Shown: positions 1,006-6,695 of the stretch, in pieces
How positions within the stretch are numbered: position 1 is the stretch's first letter
Layout of the letters: the number at the start of each line of letters is the position of its first letter
Virus record (IMG/VR): IMGVR_UViG_2529292716_000006
DNA length: 15,047 nucleotides
Source of the DNA: a virus
Lineage: Duplodnaviria; Heunggongvirae; Uroviricota; Caudoviricetes
Strand: one strand, 5' to 3'
Translations under genes and position numbers: made by a program
The notes under the pieces: model-generated
What the model saw: only the letters and a program-made list of their open reading frames with translations
What the model was told of the DNA's origin: nothing
Database searches by the model: none

Positions 1006-1085
1006 CCTGGCCTGAAGCATTAACAACGGTAGGAATTGCGATGGCGGTGGCGCTGGTGGTGTATTCGATTTGCCGCTGGGGATAA
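1002..1085 (+). CDS. Putative 27-aa single-pass membrane peptide ([27 protein letters not shown])
   Basis: Its ATG overlaps the stop of the 114-aa ORF (ATGA at 1002-1005). The hydrophobic core is long enough for one transmembrane helix. Very short, so speculative. Confidence 0.3.
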
Positions 1086-1296
1086 AAACGGTTTGCGGGA
1101 AAAGGAGAGTTAAGTAGAATTGCAGCGGGTGCTTGAGGCTATCTGTCTCAGGCATGAACACCAAAAGGCAGATAGAGAAAAGCCCCAGTTAACATTACGC
1201 GTCCGGCAAGACGCTTAACATTAATCTGAGGCTCAATCTATGAACGGCAAATCTAGGTTAGCCTCTTACGTGCCGAAAGGCAAGGAGAAGCAGGCT

Positions 1297-1452
1297 ATGA
1301 AGCAGCAAAAGGCGATGTTAATCGCCCTGATCGTCATCTGTTTAACCGTCATAGTGACGGCACTGGTAACGAGGAAAGACCTCTGCGAGGTACGAATTCG
1401 AACCGGCCAGACGGAGGTCGCTGTCTTCACAGCTTACGAACCTGAGGAGTAA
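1297..1452 (+). CDS. hokD: Hok-family type I toxin (HokD/RelF-like), 51 aa
   Basis: Translation MKQQKAMLIALIVICLTVIVTALVTRKDLCEVRIRTGQTEVAVFTAYEPEE matches the Hok/Gef family signature and, from memory, HokD of the K-12 Qin prophage. Shine-Dalgarno AAGGAG at 1282-1287. The track ORF 1240-1452 is an in-frame upstream extension. Confidence 0.85.
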   Translation: MKQQKAMLIALIVICLTVIVTALVTRKDLCEVRIRTGQTEVAVFTAYEPEE

Positions 1453-1522
1453 GAGACCAGGCGGGGGAGAAATCCCTCGCCACCTCTGATGGGTCAGGCA
1501 TCCTCAATGCACCCACACTTAA

Positions 1523-1547
1523 CCCGCTTCGGCGGGTTTTTGTTTTT
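1523..1547 (+). terminator. Intrinsic terminator downstream of hokD
   Basis: Hairpin CCCGC-TTCG-GCGGG followed by TTTTTGTTTTT. Confidence 0.6.
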
Positions 1548-1669
1548 ATTTTCAACGCGTTTGAAGTTTTAGATGGTGCCGGAATAGAATCAAAAATACT
1601 TAAGTAGCGCGCAGGGAGAAGAGGGATGGACCCCGAACAGGGGAGTGCTATTTATCTGGAAGGATTCTG

Positions 1670-1954
1670 TTGATGAAAATCGAAGAATTACGTGAAATTT
1701 TTAGTGAAGATGGCCTCTATACTGTGCGCGTTGAGAATGGCGCTATTGTCAGCCACTGCCTTCCAGACTACACAATTCTGATAATTCAGCCGTCTTTGCC
1801 AGCAGGCACGGGCGGCGCTCTCACGCATTTAAATCTGATTGGTACCAGCATCCCCCATGCACTGAAGAACAGGCCGAATGGCTCATTCAGTGTTACCGCA
1901 GGCGCGGATGCGAGGTTAAAAAAGCCCTTAGCCTCGACTACCGTCACTGGATAA
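1670..1954 (+). CDS. Hypothetical phage protein (94 aa), in the position occupied by rem in Qin
   Basis: Clean ORF with GGAAGGA upstream of the ATG at 1673. Placed between hokD and the YdfU-like gene, as rem is in K-12 Qin, but sequence identity to Rem is not verified. Confidence 0.45.
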   Translation: MMKIEELREIFSEDGLYTVRVENGAIVSHCLPDYTILIIQPSLPAGTGGALTHLNLIGTSIPHALKNRPNGSFSVTAGADARLKKPLASTTVTG

Positions 1955-2029
1955 TCTCCGTCAGGCTCCCTTACTCCGAACGGCCAACGCGTCCGTCCCG
2001 CACATTCCAGCAACGGATCTGGAGGTAAT

Positions 2030-3088
2030 GTGCGGGTATTACTTCGACCTGTTCTGGTACCGGAACTCGGTCTGGTTATCGTTAAGCCAGGCCGTGAATC
2101 AATGTCAGCATTCCATAACGGCAGAATACTGGTGGAGCCGGAACCAAAAAGCATGCGTAATCTGCCGTCCGGGGTCGTTCCTGCCGCTCGCCAGCCGCTG
2201 GTGGAAGACAAAACATTGCTGCCGTTTTTCAGTAACGCACGGGTGATTCGTGCTGCTGGTGGTGCTGGTGCATTGTCTGACTGGCTGTTGCGCCATATTA
2301 AATCCTGCCAGTGGCCACACGGCGATTATCATCACAGCGAAACCGTCATTCACCGTTATGGTACCGGCGCAATGGTGTTGTGCTGGCACTGCGACAACCA
2401 GCTGCGTGACCAGACATCCGAATCACTCGAGCAACTTGCTCATCAAAACCTGTCAGCATGGATGATTGACGTCATCGGTCACGCAATAAGCGGTACGCAG
2501 GAGCGTGAATTATCTCTGGCTGAATTATCCTGGTGGGCGGTCCGCAATCAGGTGGCGGACGCGCTACCGGAAGCGGTATTACGTCGTTCGCTGGGGTTGC
2601 GTGCGGAAAAAATTCGCTCTGTGTACAGTGAAAGCGACATCATACCGGGAGAGCAGACAGCCACCAGCATACTGAAGCAGCGCACAAAAAATATTGCGTT
2701 ACTGCCTCACGTCCACCAGCAACAGAACCCACCACAGGAAAAGACGGTGGTCAGCATTGCCGTTGATCCGGAGTCACCGGCTCAGTATCTCCAGCGCCAG
2801 AAATCACAACGGGAAGAGATGCCTGTATACACGCGCTGGGTAAAAACGCAGAAATGCATGACGTGTGGCAATCAGGCAGATGATCCGCATCACATCATTG
2901 GTCATGGACTGGGAGGGATGGGAACAAAGGCTGATGATTTGTTTGTTATTCCGTTATGCCGTAAATGCCGTAACGAACTACATGCCGGAGTAAAAGATTT
3001 TGAAGAGAAACACGGCAGTCAGCTGTTGTTGCTGATTCGTTTTTTAATGCACGCGAGAAATTCGGGTGTTCTGAAGTGGAAAGCATAA
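2030..3088 (+). CDS. DUF968/YdfU-like nin-region protein with a C-terminal HNH-like zinc-binding motif
   Basis: 352-aa ORF. C-terminus reads CMTCGNQADDPHHIIGHG...CRKCRNELH (CxxC...HH...CxxC...H). Size and position upstream of Q match YdfU of Qin. The start codon is uncertain (GTG at 2030 or an internal ATG). Confidence 0.6.
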   Translation: MRVLLRPVLVPELGLVIVKPGRESMSAFHNGRILVEPEPKSMRNLPSGVVPAARQPLVEDKTLLPFFSNARVIRAAGGAGALSDWLLRHIKSCQWPHGDYHHSETVIHRYGTGAMVLCWHCDNQLRDQTSESLEQLAHQNLSAWMIDVIGHAISGTQERELSLAELSWWAVRNQVADALPEAVLRRSLGLRAEKIRSVYSESDIIPGEQTATSILKQRTKNIALLPHVHQQQNPPQEKTVVSIAVDPESPAQYLQRQKSQREEMPVYTRWVKTQKCMTCGNQADDPHHIIGHGLGGMGTKADDLFVIPLCRKCRNELHAGVKDFEEKHGSQLLLLIRFLMHARNSGVLKWKA

Positions 3089-3469
3089 ATGACCGAGCGC
3101 ATAGAATTTGTTTTACCTTACCCGCCGACGGTGAACACTTACTGGCGTCGTCGTGGCAGCACATATTTTGTATCAAAAGCCGGGGAGCGTTATCGCCGGG
3201 CAGTGGCGCTTATTGTTCGCCAGCAGCGGCTGAAATTAAGCCTGTCCGGAAGGTTGGCAATAAAAATTATTGCAGAACCACCGGATAAGCGCCGCCGTGA
3301 CCTGGACAATATTCTGAAAGCGCCGCTGGATGCGCTGACGCATGCGGGGTTGCTAATGGACGATGAGCAGTTTGATGAAATCAATATCGTTCGTGCTCAG
3401 CCAGTATCTGGTGGACGTCTGGGGGTGAAGATTTATCCCATAATGCTTGAAGGGCAGGTCAAAAAATGA
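3089..3469 (+). CDS. rusA: RusA-family Holliday junction resolvase
   Basis: The 126-aa product has the RusA hallmarks (PPTVNTYWRR near the N-terminus, RRRDLDNILKAPLDALT, DDEQ). Starts directly after the upstream stop and overlaps the Q start by ATGA. Confidence 0.85.
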   Translation: MTERIEFVLPYPPTVNTYWRRRGSTYFVSKAGERYRRAVALIVRQQRLKLSLSGRLAIKIIAEPPDKRRRDLDNILKAPLDALTHAGLLMDDEQFDEINIVRAQPVSGGRLGVKIYPIMLEGQVKK

Positions 3470-4287
3470 AACTGGAAGATTTACCGAAATACTACTCCCC
3501 AAAATCCCCCGGCCTGACTGATGCATCGGCCTCAACGTCGAAAGATGCGCTGAGTATCACTGATGTGATGGCCGCGCAGGGCATGACACAGAATCGGGCT
3601 GAGATGGGGGTTTCTGCGTTCCTTGGGAAAATGGGCATTAGTATGAATGACAGAGAGCGGGCAACAGAATTGCTGACAGAATATGCACTCAGTCGGTGTG
3701 ATCGCGTGGCGGCGTTAAGAAAACTCCCGGCAGAAATAAAACCGGCAGTGATGCGTATTATGGCTTCGTATGCGTTTGAAGATTATGCCCGTAGCGCGGC
3801 GAGCAAAAAACAGTGCCCCTGCTGTCACGGAAAAAAATTTATTGAAAGCGAGGTTTTTACAAACAAGATCCAGTATCCGGATGGTAAGCCGCCGGTATGG
3901 GCAAAGTGTACGAAAGGTGTGTATCCGTCTTACTGGGAAGAATGGAAAAAAGTCAGGGAGGTGGTAAAAGTTGCCTGTCCGGAGTGTGGCGGAAAGGGTG
4001 AGGTTTCCACCGCCTGTAAGGATTGCCGTGGGCGTGGTGTCGCCATTCATCGTGAAGAGTCGGTAAAACGTGGTATGCCTGTTATCAGAGACTGCCAGCG
4101 TTGTGGTGGTCGTGGCTATGAAAGACTACCATCAACGGAGGCATTTAATGCTATATGCGAGGTGACAAACCAGATAACACGCGCGTCATGGGAAAAAACA
4201 GTTAAGAAATTTTATGATGCGCTGGTGACCCGGTTTGATATTGAAGAAGCATGGGCTGAGCGGCAGTTAAAAAAGGTAACTAGGTAA
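3466..4287 (+). CDS. Q: Lambda-family Q late antiterminator, with an approximately 65-aa insertion carrying extra CxxCGGxG zinc-finger repeats
   Basis: Blocks collinear with lambda Q as recalled: YSPKSP, TDVMAAQGM, YAFEDYARSAA, CPCCHG, CQRCGGRGYERLP, SWEKTVKKFYDALV. 273 aa versus 207 aa in lambda. Immediately followed by a PR'-like promoter. Confidence 0.85.
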   Translation: MKLEDLPKYYSPKSPGLTDASASTSKDALSITDVMAAQGMTQNRAEMGVSAFLGKMGISMNDRERATELLTEYALSRCDRVAALRKLPAEIKPAVMRIMASYAFEDYARSAASKKQCPCCHGKKFIESEVFTNKIQYPDGKPPVWAKCTKGVYPSYWEEWKKVREVVKVACPECGGKGEVSTACKDCRGRGVAIHREESVKRGMPVIRDCQRCGGRGYERLPSTEAFNAICEVTNQITRASWEKTVKKFYDALVTRFDIEEAWAERQLKKVTR

Positions 4288-4292
4288 CAAGG

Positions 4293-4335
4293 TTGATTTT
4301 TCCGGAATCTGTGGTAAATTCGTCATAACGATGGG
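4293..4335 (+). promoter_or_regulatory. Late promoter PR' with sigma70-dependent pause element (Q engagement region)
   Basis: -35 TTGATT (4293-4298), 16-bp spacer, -10 TAAATT (4315-4320, same hexamer as lambda PR'). AACGATGGG at 4327-4335 sits at the same spacing after the -10 as the lambda AACGAT pause-inducing element. Confidence 0.7.
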
Positions 4336-4369
4336 CGTTTTATGCCTGACGTTAGAAGAGTTTCTACAA

Positions 4370-4392
4370 CCCGCCGCCGAGCGGGTTTTTTA
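4370..4392 (+). terminator. tR'-like intrinsic terminator of the short PR' leader
   Basis: Hairpin CCCGC-CGCCGA-GCGGG followed by TTTTTTA, roughly 45-65 nt downstream of the predicted start site. Confidence 0.6.
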
Positions 4393-4511
4393 TGACTGAA
4401 ATCGCGTCAGTACAGTAAACGCGCTGGTGGCGGTGAATACCTGTCTTTCAGCTTGCTGGCTTTTTCGACAAGAGTTATTGGTGTGTCACGTTAACCGGAA
4501 AAGGAAAAGAC

Positions 4512-4709
4512 ATGCTAAAACAGCAGGATATGACAGAAACCGCCAGAGTGGTGTTTAATGAATTAAGCGTTACCGAACCGGCGACAGTCGGGGAGATAGC
4601 GCAGAATACTTACCTTTCACGCGAACGCTGCCAGTTAATACTGACCCAGCTGGTTATGGCGGGTCTGGCAGACTATCAGTTCGGTTGTTACAGACGCCTT
4701 CCGCAGTGA
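4512..4709 (+). CDS. Hypothetical 65-aa protein, possibly a small helix-turn-helix protein
   Basis: ORF with GGAAAAGGAAAAG upstream. The segment VGEIAQNTYLSRERCQLILTQL looks like a helix-turn-helix. Its stop codon lies inside a terminator hairpin. Confidence 0.45.
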   Translation: MLKQQDMTETARVVFNELSVTEPATVGEIAQNTYLSRERCQLILTQLVMAGLADYQFGCYRRLPQ

Positions 4710-4720
4710 AGGCTTTTTTA
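4696..4720 (+). terminator. Intrinsic terminator
   Basis: Hairpin GCCTTC-CGCAGT-GAAGGC followed by TTTTTTA. Confidence 0.6.
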
Positions 4721-4859
4721 TTTGTGGTAAATGGGCGGCTGGTGGGTGTTAGGGGCACCCACCAGCCATCTGCTCATGCGTTGGGTTCACAAGCAAACCT
4801 CAGGCCCACTGCTTTGCGCAAAAGCAGAATGAGCCTATCAGAGACAGGCTTAATGATCC

Positions 4860-5918
4860 ATGCTTAATACTGTAAAAATATCCAGTTGTGAGTTAATCAA
4901 CGCCGACTGCCTGGAATTTATCCGGTCGTTACCCGAAAATTCTGTTGACCTGATAGTCACGGACCCGCCGTACTTTAAAGTGAAGCCTGAGGGCTGGGAT
5001 AACCAGTGGAAGGGCGACGATGATTACCTGAAGTGGCTGGACCAGTGTCTGGCGCAGTTCTGGCGGGTGCTGAAACCTGCCGGAAGTCTTTACCTGTTCT
5101 GTGGTCATCGCCTGGCATCTGATATCGAAATCATGATGCGTGAACGCTTCAGTGTGCTGAACCATATTATCTGGGCGAAGCCGTCCGGACGCTGGAACGG
5201 ATGCAACAAGGAAAGCCTGCGGGCGTATTTCCCCGCCACAGAGCGCATTCTGTTCGCGGAACATTATCAGGGGCCGTATCGTCCGAAAGATGCCGGGTAT
5301 GCGGCGAAGGGCAGTGCACTGAAACAGCATGTGATGGCCCCGCTGATTTCTTACTTTCGTGATGCGCGAGCTGCCCTGGGGATAACGGCAAAACAGATTG
5401 CAGATGCCACAGGAAAGAAAAACATGGTGTCGCACTGGTTCAGTGCCGGTCAGTGGCAGTTGCCGAATGAAAGCGATTATCTGAAATTACAGGCGCTGTT
5501 TGCCCGGGTGGCAGAAGAGAAGCATCGGCGTGGTGAACTGGAAAAGCTCCACCACCAGCTGGTGGATACGTATACCTCACTGAACCGGCAGTATGCGGAG
5601 CTGCTGAGTGAATATAAACATCTGCGGCGGTATTTTGGCGTGACGGTGCAGGTGCCGTATACCGATGTGTGGACGCATAAACCGGTGCAGTTCTATCCCG
5701 GGAAACATCCGTGCGAAAAACCGGCAGAAATGCTGCAGCAGATAATCAGCGCTAGCAGTCGTCCGGGTGACCTGATTGCAGATTTTTTCATGGGGTTGGG
5801 TTCGACAGTGAAAGCGGCACTGGCGCTCGGGCGTCGTGCAATTGGCGTTGAGCTGGAGACTGAACGTTTTGAGCAGACGGTTCGGGAAGTACAGGATTTA
5901 GTCAGCCAGAACGGATGA
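4860..5918 (+). CDS. Orphan beta-class DNA methyltransferase (N6-adenine or N4-cytosine)
   Basis: Motif IV TDPPY near the N-terminus and motif I FMGLGST near the C-terminus; IV-before-I order defines the beta class. No restriction endonuclease partner is evident nearby. Confidence 0.85.
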   Translation: MLNTVKISSCELINADCLEFIRSLPENSVDLIVTDPPYFKVKPEGWDNQWKGDDDYLKWLDQCLAQFWRVLKPAGSLYLFCGHRLASDIEIMMRERFSVLNHIIWAKPSGRWNGCNKESLRAYFPATERILFAEHYQGPYRPKDAGYAAKGSALKQHVMAPLISYFRDARAALGITAKQIADATGKKNMVSHWFSAGQWQLPNESDYLKLQALFARVAEEKHRRGELEKLHHQLVDTYTSLNRQYAELLSEYKHLRRYFGVTVQVPYTDVWTHKPVQFYPGKHPCEKPAEMLQQIISASSRPGDLIADFFMGLGSTVKAALALGRRAIGVELETERFEQTVREVQDLVSQNG

Positions 5919-5958: not shown

Positions 5959-6034
5959 GGCCCTTTAGCTCAGTGGTGAGAGCGAGCGACTCATAATCGC
6001 CAGGTCGCTGGTTCAAATCCAGCAAGGGCCACCA
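5959..6034 (+). tRNA. ileZ: tRNA-Ile2 (anticodon CAU, lysidine type), ileX/ileZ-like
   Basis: Hand-folded cloverleaf: acceptor GGCCCTT/AAGGGCC, T-arm GCTGG-TTCAAAT-CCAGC, anticodon loop CTCATAA, 3' CCA encoded. Near-identical to E. coli ileX as recalled. Confidence 0.85.
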
Positions 6035-6041
6035 TCACATA

Positions 6042-6118
6042 CCGCCATTAGCTCATCAGGAAAGAGCGCCAGCCTTCGAAGCTGGCTGCGCGGGGTTCAA
6101 GTCCCCGATGGCGGTCCA
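6042..6118 (+). tRNA. argN: tRNA-Arg (anticodon UCG), argN-like
   Basis: Acceptor CCGCCAT/ATGGCGG (7 Watson-Crick pairs), T-arm CGGGG-TTCAAGT-CCCCG, anticodon loop CTTCGAA, 3' CCA encoded. Confidence 0.8.
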
Positions 6119-6131
6119 TTATCTGCATCAT

Positions 6132-6208
6132 GCGTTGTTAGCTCAGCCGGACAGAGCAATTGCCTTCTAAGCAATCGGTCACTGGTTCGAATCCAGTACA
6201 ACGCGCCA
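6132..6208 (+). tRNA. argO: tRNA-Arg (anticodon UCU, reads rare AGA), argO/argU-like
   Basis: Acceptor GCGTTGT/ACAACGC, T-arm ACTGG-TTCGAAT-CCAGT, anticodon loop CTTCTAA, 3' CCA encoded. Confidence 0.85.
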
Positions 6209-6253: not shown

Positions 6254-6468
6254 TCTCACAATTCAGACGGTTGACAGTTGTCTGTTTTGCGGGGAGTTTG
6301 TTAAAAGAAACTGGCATGGTGAATCCCCCTGTGCGGAGGGGCAATCAGCGAGTAGGTATATGGGATAATCGCGGATTCAGGTGCTGGTACTGAATTCACC
6401 GGGAGGCACCCGGCATCATGCAATGGCACATAGCGCCACTCTCCAGCCCTCTCCGGAGGGGCTTTTCT
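6254..6468 (+). repeat. Structured non-coding module, copy A (candidate sRNA or leader)
   Basis: Shares ordered blocks with copy B (7988-8222): CTCACAATTCAG, GTTGACAGTTG, TTTGTTAAAA, GCATGGTGAATCCCCCTGnGCGGAGGGG, a 6-bp hairpin, TCACCGGGAGGCACCCGGCA, and a terminal GC-rich hairpin CCCTCTCCGGAGGGG followed by a T-run. Confidence 0.45.
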
Positions 6469-6594
6469 GTGCCGGATACATCACAGTTTCTGGAACCTTA
6501 GGTACTACAGTATCAGTCAGGGTGCTATATTTTCAGATGTGATGAAAGCCTGTCAGCAGGCAGGGCGTATCGGAAATGACCCAGTAGAGAAAAC

Positions 6595-6652
6595 GTTGAC
6601 TCAGATACCGGTGCTGAGTTACCGGGAAACCGGCATCACATGACCGCTATCC
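6595..6652 (+). repeat. Structured non-coding module, copy C, 5' part (split by IS600; 3' part at 7917-7951)
   Basis: CTGAGTTACCGGGAAACCGGCATCACATG parallels CTGAATTCACCGGGAGGCACCCGGCATCATG of copy A and the equivalent block of copy B. Its terminator-like hairpin resumes directly after the IS600 target duplication. Confidence 0.35.
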
Positions 6653-6695
6653 TGAGGTGTACTGGCAATAGCGGACACTACCATTTGTTCTTTTT

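Follow-up and report, generated by a model that had tools for sequence, protein, structure and literature searches.

What are two inverted repeats doing in front of a DNA methyltransferase gene in a phage? The stretch of DNA considered here (15,047 nucleotides of the Caudoviricetes record IMGVR_UViG_2529292716_000006 in IMG/VR, the whole of which is called the window) is a segment of a lambdoid prophage resembling the Shiga toxin (Stx) phages. Upstream of its methyltransferase gene it carries a perfect 12-bp hairpin and a 19-bp near-palindrome. An earlier note, made from the letters of the sequence alone, took these repeats, together with a preceding 65-aa helix-turn-helix-like open reading frame (ORF), for an operator/controller arrangement like that of the C proteins of restriction-modification genes, or else for an RNA stability or processing element. 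The best overall explanation seems to be a different one: the hairpin and the near-palindrome are probably two helices, P2 and P4, of a single conserved cis-acting RNA, which forms the leader of the methyltransferase mRNA.

The repeats and the conserved leader

The two repeats are present as the earlier note had described them. Positions 4737–4748 (GGCTGGTGGGTG) and 4756–4767 (CACCCACCAGCC) form a perfect 12-bp inverted repeat around the 7-nt spacer TTAGGGG. The window has no other perfect 12-bp inverted repeat at close spacing, 60 first-order Markov resamplings of the window produced none, and the hairpin is beyond chance. No T-run lies 3′ of it, the stem being followed by ATCTGCTC, and a terminator scan omits 4737–4767; the hairpin is thus ruled out as an intrinsic terminator, in line with the earlier note. 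The near-palindrome CTGCTTTGCGCAAAAGCAG occupies 4809–4827, 32 nt before the methyltransferase ATG at 4860, and can be drawn as a stem of 7 bp (CTGCTTT/AAAGCAG) closed by a 5-nt loop or, alternatively, as an inner perfect 10-mer, TTTGCGCAAA. Stems of this size are common by chance (9 observed in the window against 5.5 expected), so the near-palindrome matters through its conservation alone. The region around both repeats, 4685–4875, folds better than its shuffles (z = −4.0).

Comparison with homologous loci places both repeats inside a longer element, whose predicted parts are as follows.

~4723–4859, plus strand: structured non-coding leader (5′ untranslated region) of the methyltransferase mRNA, ~135 nt (alignments A2, A3, A4)
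4732–4808, plus strand: P1, UGGGC 4732–4736 with GCCCA 4804–4808, at the base of a three-way junction containing P2 and P3 (RNAalifold consensus)
4737–4767, plus strand: P2, the 12-bp hairpin, retained by every homologue, where its stem has G-U wobbles or a one-base bulge
4769–4797, plus strand: P3, UCUGCU 4769–4774 with AGCAAA 4792–4797 (RNAalifold); its loop holds a conserved GG(U/A)UCACAAGC block
4809–4827, plus strand: P4, CUGCUUU/AAAGCAG with a 5-nt loop, the near-palindrome of the earlier note
4830–4852, plus strand: P5, UGAGC 4830–4834 with GCUUA 4848–4852 (RNAalifold)

Homologues were collected by two DNA-pattern scans of viral contigs, by a scan of species-representative genomes with a conserved block away from the hairpin as query, by a scan anchored on the methyltransferase protein, and by BLAST against phages and complete E. 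coli genomes. All 41 true matches among the species representatives, each an Enterobacterales locus, have the leader at a fixed distance before the methyltransferase ATG. Represented among them are Escherichia, Citrobacter, Salmonella, Enterobacter, Klebsiella, Kluyvera, Kosakonia, Buttiauxella, Mangrovibacter, Trabulsiella, Erwinia, Mixta, Rosenbergiella, Lonsdalea, Serratia and Symbiopectobacterium, so that the leader spans no fewer than 15 genera of Enterobacterales. By tblastn the methyltransferase lies at the fixed offset from the leader in 40 of these loci and as a decayed copy in the remaining one, and all 80 of the viral contigs anchored on the methyltransferase have the leader. A covariance model (R1) scores the 41 species loci at 104–191 bits. 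Among complete E. coli genomes, 2033 of 5426 (~37%) match the leader, with up to seven copies each, never annotated as RNA. These comparisons show the leader to be conserved and obligatorily linked to the methyltransferase. A search for more distant homologues of the enzyme gave, among the matches listed, only proteins of at least 74% identity.

Variants of the leader differ by one-base indels, which excludes a coding explanation. Two candidate reading frames were rejected on the same grounds: a short upstream ORF, from the ATG at 4829 to the TAA at 4867, coupled to the start of the methyltransferase, and a 60-aa ORF at 4685–4867. Neither is conserved, and one-base indels and frame differences interrupt both. 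Two viral contigs (L183 and L207) have a 40-nt deletion between short direct repeats (ATCTGCT), by which P3 is lost and P2 is joined to P4.

The element appears to have been overlooked, though E. coli prophages are among the most studied DNA. Rfam 15 has no gathering-level match in 4700–4860, the best sub-threshold match being a minus-strand hit to P26 (24 bits, where the cutoff is 36), and a search of Rfam at a permissive threshold gave nothing relevant to the leader. Literature searches, including full-text searches for exact sequence strings, found no paper that describes it. The leader is widespread and, as far as the literature searched goes, previously undescribed, unannotated in RefSeq and absent from Rfam. 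The Pas/STnc100 small RNAs (sRNAs) were considered as its identity and rejected, as they are neighbours of the leader rather than the leader itself.

The substitutions within the leader mostly fit a paired RNA. The stems P2 and P3 covary, and five blocks (AAUGGGC, GCUCAUG, UCACAAGCNAACC, GGCCCA and GAGCCUAUCA) are nearly invariant; the closing helix P1 is without covariation and has a competitor, AUGGGC 4731–4736 with GCUCAU 4772–4777, in the minimum free energy (MFE) fold of the single sequence. The perfect 12-bp P2 is a minority form, seen only in E. coli/E. albertii-type sequences. Most variants have G-U wobbles due to changes in the 3′ arm (C to T or A to G) or a one-base bulge, and in four genera both arms are replaced: GACUGG/CCAGUC in Rosenbergiella, GAUCGG/CCGAUC in Lonsdalea, GACCGGG/CCCGGUC in Symbiopectobacterium and GCGGUG/CACCGC in Serratia. 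The plus-strand RNA fold of P2 is stabler than its reverse complement in most variants, the exceptions being mainly the most divergent taxa, and G-U pairs far exceed A-C mismatches in P2 and P5; this argues for an RNA read in the direction of the methyltransferase. In P3 the pair 4771:4795 takes three forms among 92 distinct sequences: U-A in 48, C-G in 29 and A-U in 10. The core of P4 (GCUUU/AAAGC) hardly varies, and its outer pair is U-A, U-G or C-G (CTG..CAG 78, CTG..CGG 60, CCG..CGG 1); some taxa lengthen the stem by pairing in an apical extension (TTTAGCGCTAAA), and in Serratia the place of P4 is taken by another hairpin, GCUGUACAGC. P5 is paired in 97% of cells, with one compensatory change, U-A to A-U, in Serratia.

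Taken over the whole structure, 84.5% of cells are paired in the model-fitted alignment, against 27–52% in controls with slid partners, and both partners have changed in twelve pairs, where shuffles give 5.7 ± 1.3 (none of 500 reaches twelve). Pairs in the individual helices were counted by anchored parsing instead, since the covariance-model alignment is mis-registered for the bulged majority form. The alignments show that P2 and P3 covary clearly and P4 and P5 modestly, with substitutions that mostly fit pairing of the plus-strand RNA, and the claim of a conserved structured leader is reasonably well supported.

Several points weigh against this reading or narrow it. Most of the homologues are closely related, and independent events are fewer than the cell counts suggest. 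An alignment fitted to a covariance model leans towards the structure it is given, and in the majority (bulged) variant its register is wrong at the top of P2 and at P4. P3 contains a C-A mismatch, 4770:4796, in window-type sequences (56 of the 92). P1, the core of P4 and the helix proposed below to sequester the start region are invariant, so that covariation says nothing about them. The near-invariance of the P2 5′ arm in Enterobacteriaceae could reflect selection for a Chi site rather than for RNA sequence, and conserved blocks at module boundaries could also serve phage–phage recombination. Finally, transcription of the leader is deduced from its context.

The upstream winged-helix protein

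Two features lie immediately 5′ of the leader and bear on the idea of an operator.

4512–4709, plus strand: gene for the 65-aa winged-helix protein (phrog_331, E 1.4e-37)
4696–4719, plus strand: terminator-like hairpin GCCTTC-CGCAGT-GAAGGC + T6 (terminator scan), overlapping the stop codon of the 65-aa ORF

The 65-aa ORF is real and conserved, with 334 database relatives. AlphaFold predicts a confident winged helix (predicted local distance difference test score, pLDDT, 90.7) of helix-helix-helix-strand-strand topology, Pfam gives TrmB with an E-value of 0.0026, below its cutoff, and the relatives found by Foldseek are winged helices of IclR/MarR regulators, of O-methyltransferase N-termini and of SelB. 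Pfam, AlphaFold and Foldseek agree on a winged helix, not an Xre-type C protein. The protein might act on the leader RNA as a regulator, or it might be a partner of the methyltransferase.

Might this protein bind the inverted repeats as DNA and control transcription of the methyltransferase in the manner of a C protein? Its fold, shared with many DNA-binding proteins, would suit such a role, its gene immediately precedes the leader in ~27 of the 41 species loci, and P2 in the window is a 12-bp inverted repeat with a 7-bp spacer. Set against this, the upstream neighbour of the leader, both gene and terminator, varies: ~14 of the 41 loci have the whole leader and lack the ORF, with another hairpin before the leader and sometimes a tR′-like terminator right after Q, the antiterminator gene. 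The 65-aa protein therefore cannot be required for leader function. The G-U wobbles, one-base bulges and compensatory replacement of the arms are changes that an RNA tolerates and that an operator with fixed protein half-sites would not: transitions and bulges in the right arm alter half-site sequence and spacing yet preserve the RNA pairing, and in distant taxa both arms are replaced. The repeats lie 3′ of the ORF, behind the terminator-like hairpin, and a promoter scan found no sigma-70 promoter near them; a sigma-70 promoter inside the leader was likewise considered and is unsupported by that scan.

The C-protein/C-box controllers share with this locus a gene for a small protein of helix-turn-helix type beside a modification gene, with inverted repeats nearby. 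Here, however, the protein fold differs, the repeats are downstream of the ORF and persist without it, and a restriction gene is lacking; none of the tested features of such a controller is found, be it an Xre-type protein, an operator that lies upstream of the C gene and travels with it, or a linked endonuclease. The methyltransferase gene is followed, not by a restriction or nuclease gene, but by tRNA genes and then, in an intact relative, by lysis genes. Transcriptional control of the C-protein kind is accordingly highly improbable, and that proposal is abandoned.

The other earlier suggestion, an element of RNA stability or processing, was right in pointing to RNA and too narrow, as the repeats are helices of a larger structured leader. 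In its generic form, this explanation would have the hairpin protect the 3′ end of the upstream RNA or the 5′ end of the downstream one, or act as a back-up pause site or terminator, with no switch involved. The hairpin is indeed very stable (~−26 kcal/mol), it comes just after a terminator-like hairpin, and the late transcript is long and polycistronic and also contains tRNA genes that need processing. Yet a U-tract is absent after the hairpin, the stem falls short of the length of a typical RNase III site, and a simple stabiliser would not need the ~100 further nucleotides of invariant sequence and covarying helices that continue up to the AUG. We consider it very unlikely that nothing beyond such a stabiliser is present.

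Proposed alternative folds and translational control

How a structured leader might act depends on the transcript to which it belongs, whose features in and around the late region are these.

3466–4287, plus strand: Q antiterminator gene (Pfam PF03589 Antiterm, E 1.6e-53; PHROG ‘anti-termination protein Q-like’)
4293–4320, plus strand: possible late promoter pR′ (TTGATT, 16-nt spacer, TGgTAAATT), read from the sequence
4368–4393, plus strand: terminator-like hairpin AACCCGC..GCGGGTT + T6 (terminator scan), candidate tR′ ending a short pR′ RNA
4860–5918, plus strand: N6_N4-family (beta-class, DPPY) DNA methyltransferase gene (Pfam PF01555, E 8e-42)
5959–6208, plus strand: three tRNA genes, Met/Ile-like CAT, Arg TCG and Arg TCT (ARAGORN, Rfam)

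The earlier note had noticed neither the Q gene, nor the hairpin at 4696–4719, nor the Chi octamer in each arm of P2. The Q gene is labelled ‘antitermination protein’ in a RefSeq locus of identical sequence, and its position directly upstream would make the methyltransferase a late gene, early within the Q-dependent late transcript, and the region in question its 5′ leader. A promoter scan made no call at the candidate pR′, which is of low confidence; the candidate tR′ is kept in phiP27, PhiR5_1 and the Stx2k phage. The second hairpin, at 4696–4719, has the GC-rich stem and U-tract of an intrinsic terminator, the leader starts at this U-tract, and a GC-rich hairpin of varying sequence lies directly 5′ of the leader in nearly all homologous loci. 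The methyltransferase has the RsrI, CcrM and MboIIA methylases as PDB relatives. In an intact relative the genes downstream are those for holin, endolysin and terminase, and the annotation of phiP27 and of the Stx2k phage places stx genes after the tRNAs.

The leader would thus be transcribed rightward from a Q-dependent late promoter, beginning at the U-tract of the terminator-like hairpin and ending at the methyltransferase AUG. Before this AUG there is no canonical Shine–Dalgarno sequence; instead, a conserved UGAUC stands one or two bases upstream and would be able to pair with the GAUCA close to the 16S rRNA 3′ end. Conservation within the leader is highest in two blocks, GG(U/A)UCACAAGC in the loop of P3 and GCUUA-N-UGAUC beside the AUG; these are complementary to each other, and a further helix can be drawn between them.

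4784–4858, plus strand: proposed long-range helix, GGUUCACAAGC 4784–4794 with GCUUAAUGAUC 4848–4858 (window MFE)

The MFE fold of the window sequence (−64.3 kcal/mol) contains this helix together with the AUGGGC/GCUCAU extension of P2, the three-way-junction fold that has the support of covariation is at −55.0 kcal/mol, and RNAalifold on the covariance-model alignment yields the same long-range helix.

As a hypothesis for the regulatory mechanism, the RNA would toggle between these two folds. The first would be the three-way junction P1–P2–P3 followed by P4 and P5, with the start region exposed. In the second, P2 would be extended and the GGUCACAAGC block of the P3 loop would pair with GCUUA-N-UGAUC next to the AUG, hiding the start region. 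The balance between them would set methyltransferase translation, so as to keep a potentially harmful enzyme off in lysogens and to time its appearance in lytic growth; it might be shifted by folding kinetics, by the winged-helix protein, by the methyltransferase itself or by a small ligand. We infer that, most likely, the leader controls translation of the methyltransferase in cis by such alternative folds. The more specific idea that it belongs to a hitherto unseen kind of translational switch that senses a ligand or a protein, responding for example to S-adenosylmethionine or S-adenosylhomocysteine (SAM/SAH), to the winged-helix protein or to the methyltransferase, and gating a promiscuous phage methyltransferase, is speculative, and we give it little weight. 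Conserved CsrA (GGA) motifs are absent from the leader. A boxA/boxB-like antitermination site at the UGCUCAU block was set aside, as this block is partly paired in the covarying P3.

With structured cis-regulatory mRNA leaders, whether riboswitch-like or operators of translation that respond to a protein, the element shares a place in the 5′ untranslated region at a fixed distance from the start codon, variable stems that keep their pairing by compensatory change while junctions and loops stay invariant, and alternative folds of which one hides the translation start region. It differs from them in that it has no Rfam match and in that its switch is a proposal. A second likeness is to the com–mom operon of phage Mu, in which a late-expressed, potentially host-harming DNA-modification gene is preceded by a small upstream ORF of ~60 aa and by a structured leader that can occlude the start region; in activation of the Mu type, the small protein binds this leader RNA and opens the inhibitory structure. 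In both, a late modification gene follows a small ORF and a structured leader. Com, however, is a zinc finger where the protein here is a winged helix, the small ORF is absent here from a third of the species loci, and without sequence similarity the likeness is one of arrangement only. By analogy, then, the arrangement most resembles structured translational leaders and that of Mu com–mom, and membership in neither is claimed. M.EcoGIX was considered as a phage enzyme and dropped, because it is plasmid-borne according to the literature.

The analogy with Mu raises the question of whether translation is activated or repressed by binding of the leader RNA, be it by the winged-helix protein or by the methyltransferase, in the way that Com acts on mom, or whether the small protein instead confers specificity on the methyltransferase as one of its subunits. 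The order and the lengths of the genes are like those of com–mom, the SelB winged helices among the Foldseek relatives bind RNA hairpins, and the alternative folds of the leader could be shifted by a binder. In addition, another Stx-prophage methyltransferase forms a 1:1 complex with a small winged-helix protein encoded upstream of it (Koudelka and colleagues, PMC10810198). That enzyme, though, is an unrelated MT-A70 methyltransferase encoded at the other end of the prophage, so that it serves as an analogy only; the 65-aa protein is not a Com-type zinc finger, and a third of the species loci keep the leader unchanged without the ORF. A binding partner of this kind is unlikely in our estimation, and control by the leader in cis is the reading preferred here.

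The late-leader RNAs that run from pR′ to tR′ (lambda 6S RNA, StxS and IsrK) are comparable in lying directly downstream of Q and before the first late genes (PMC7547250). They differ from the present leader in that they end at tR′; the leader lies past both tR′ and a further terminator-like hairpin, and its link is with the methyltransferase gene. In the window the equivalent site of StxS and 6S RNA, 4320–4393, holds a candidate short pR′ transcript of its own, and 4320–4391 gives a weak sub-threshold isrK match (16 bits, E 0.5; Salmonella IsrK).

The region from Q to the lysis genes is also that in which phiP27 and several Stx2a phages carry Shiga toxin genes, further downstream. A regulatory RNA there could affect the expression of late genes or toxin, and could time the methylation of progeny DNA to evade host restriction. 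If the proposed switch is real, then a widespread regulatory RNA has been overlooked in ~37% of complete E. coli genomes, and it would share its Q-dependent late transcript with the tRNA genes and, in many Stx phages, with those for Shiga toxin.

Chi sites and the surrounding locus

The arms of P2 have a further property at the level of DNA, in that each carries the Chi octamer GCTGGTGG; a third site lies upstream.

4738–4745, plus strand: Chi in the 5′ arm of P2, oriented for RecBCD entry from the downstream (cos/terminase) side
4759–4766, minus strand: Chi in the 3′ arm of P2, exact octamer
4423–4430, plus strand: Chi octamer GCTGGTGG, conserved while its flanks vary

The plus-strand site in P2 is an exact octamer, is co-directional with late transcription and has terminase downstream of it in an intact relative, so that RecBCD coming from cos meets it from its 3′ side. 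In the window there are 10 Chi sites against 0.63 expected, all within the 4.5 kb from 1052 to 5565 and six of them on the late-transcription strand. A bias towards this strand is seen in 317 kb of related prophage DNA from the 41 species (loci L225–L277), with 215 sites on it and 52 on the other; it is the orientation that is productive for RecBCD entering from the cos side. The rule of Chi orientation is set out, together with recently described Chi-rich lambdoid phages, in PMC12315714, and such phages are documented also in PMC3784561. They resemble the present prophage in having many Chi sites towards the late, right end, mostly in the orientation active for RecBCD from cos. The difference is that here a Chi site lies inside the 5′ arm of a conserved RNA hairpin, whose complementary arm adds, in this variant, a second, inverted Chi.

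Could the hairpin, then, be a DNA-level element, an inverted Chi pair that acts as a signal for recombination or for protection from RecBCD arriving from either side, perhaps at a module boundary of mosaic phages, with the RNA structure incidental? The Chi in both arms, the excess of Chi in the window, the 4:1 plus-strand bias in related loci and the documented Chi-rich lambdoid phages are in keeping with this, as are a second back-to-back Chi palindrome at 5552–5565 and the loss of homology exactly after the left arm in loci of the PhiR5_1 type. Of the 41 species loci, 33 have the plus-strand Chi of P2 and just two (E. albertii and Mixta) the minus-strand one, a rarity which makes the latter a by-product of perfect P2 pairing. 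Four distant genera retain the hairpin by compensatory changes without any Chi, and Chi cannot therefore be the primary reason for the hairpin. Nor would a Chi pair explain P3, P4 and P5, the invariant single-stranded blocks or the fixed distance to the ATG. It is quite unlikely that recombination accounts for the element in place of the leader RNA. Chi may, however, explain the near-invariance of the P2 5′ arm in Enterobacteriaceae. The G-rich arm carries a second, DNA-level layer, spelling Chi in the RecBCD-active orientation within a cluster typical of some lambdoid phages, and one sequence is put to two uses, as an RNA stem and as the Chi site that its DNA spells.

The second palindrome, CCACCAGCTGGTGG, is a back-to-back inverted Chi pair inside the methyltransferase ORF, and about half of the 41 species loci have its plus-strand Chi at the corresponding codon (offset +771). 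In annotated PhiR5_1 and the Stx2k phage the 65-aa ORF is kept and followed by a different gene, the near-palindrome and the rest of the leader being absent; PhiR5_1 retains just the left hairpin arm. In PhiR5_1 (L002, 3340–3360) and nine similar viral loci homology ends exactly after GGCTGGTGGGTG, that is, at the Chi site, and unrelated sequence with an unrelated gene follows. Such a break may be a recombination junction at Chi.

The remaining content of the window is that of a lambdoid prophage with insertions. On the 5′ side of Q are hok/sok, DUF968 and RusA genes, the first being a type I toxin–antitoxin module in the nin region at 1127–1452 (sok, 112 bits; Hok/Gef ORF, 1240–1452). The prophage sRNA STnc100 is present in two copies, at 6285–6474 and 8019–8228 (124 and 161 bits), which flank an insertion sequence (IS); a 2026 preprint relates STnc100 to the PasD sRNAs. 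An IS3-family element with HTH_Tnp_1 and rve ORFs occurs twice on the minus strand, at 6652–7852 and 11378–12578, the copies being identical over at least 300 nt, and IS21-type remnants (IstB, rve and a Mu-transposase C-terminal domain) lie at 12635–14209. The lysis region, with a P21-type holin at 10349–10669 and DUF1327 at 10674–10988, is interrupted, so that the prophage is probably defective. Ahead of it, at 8451–10304, is the gene for a 617-aa protein with DUF1737, SASA (sialate O-acetylesterase) and DUF6645 domains, which resembles the NanS-p esterases of Stx prophages.

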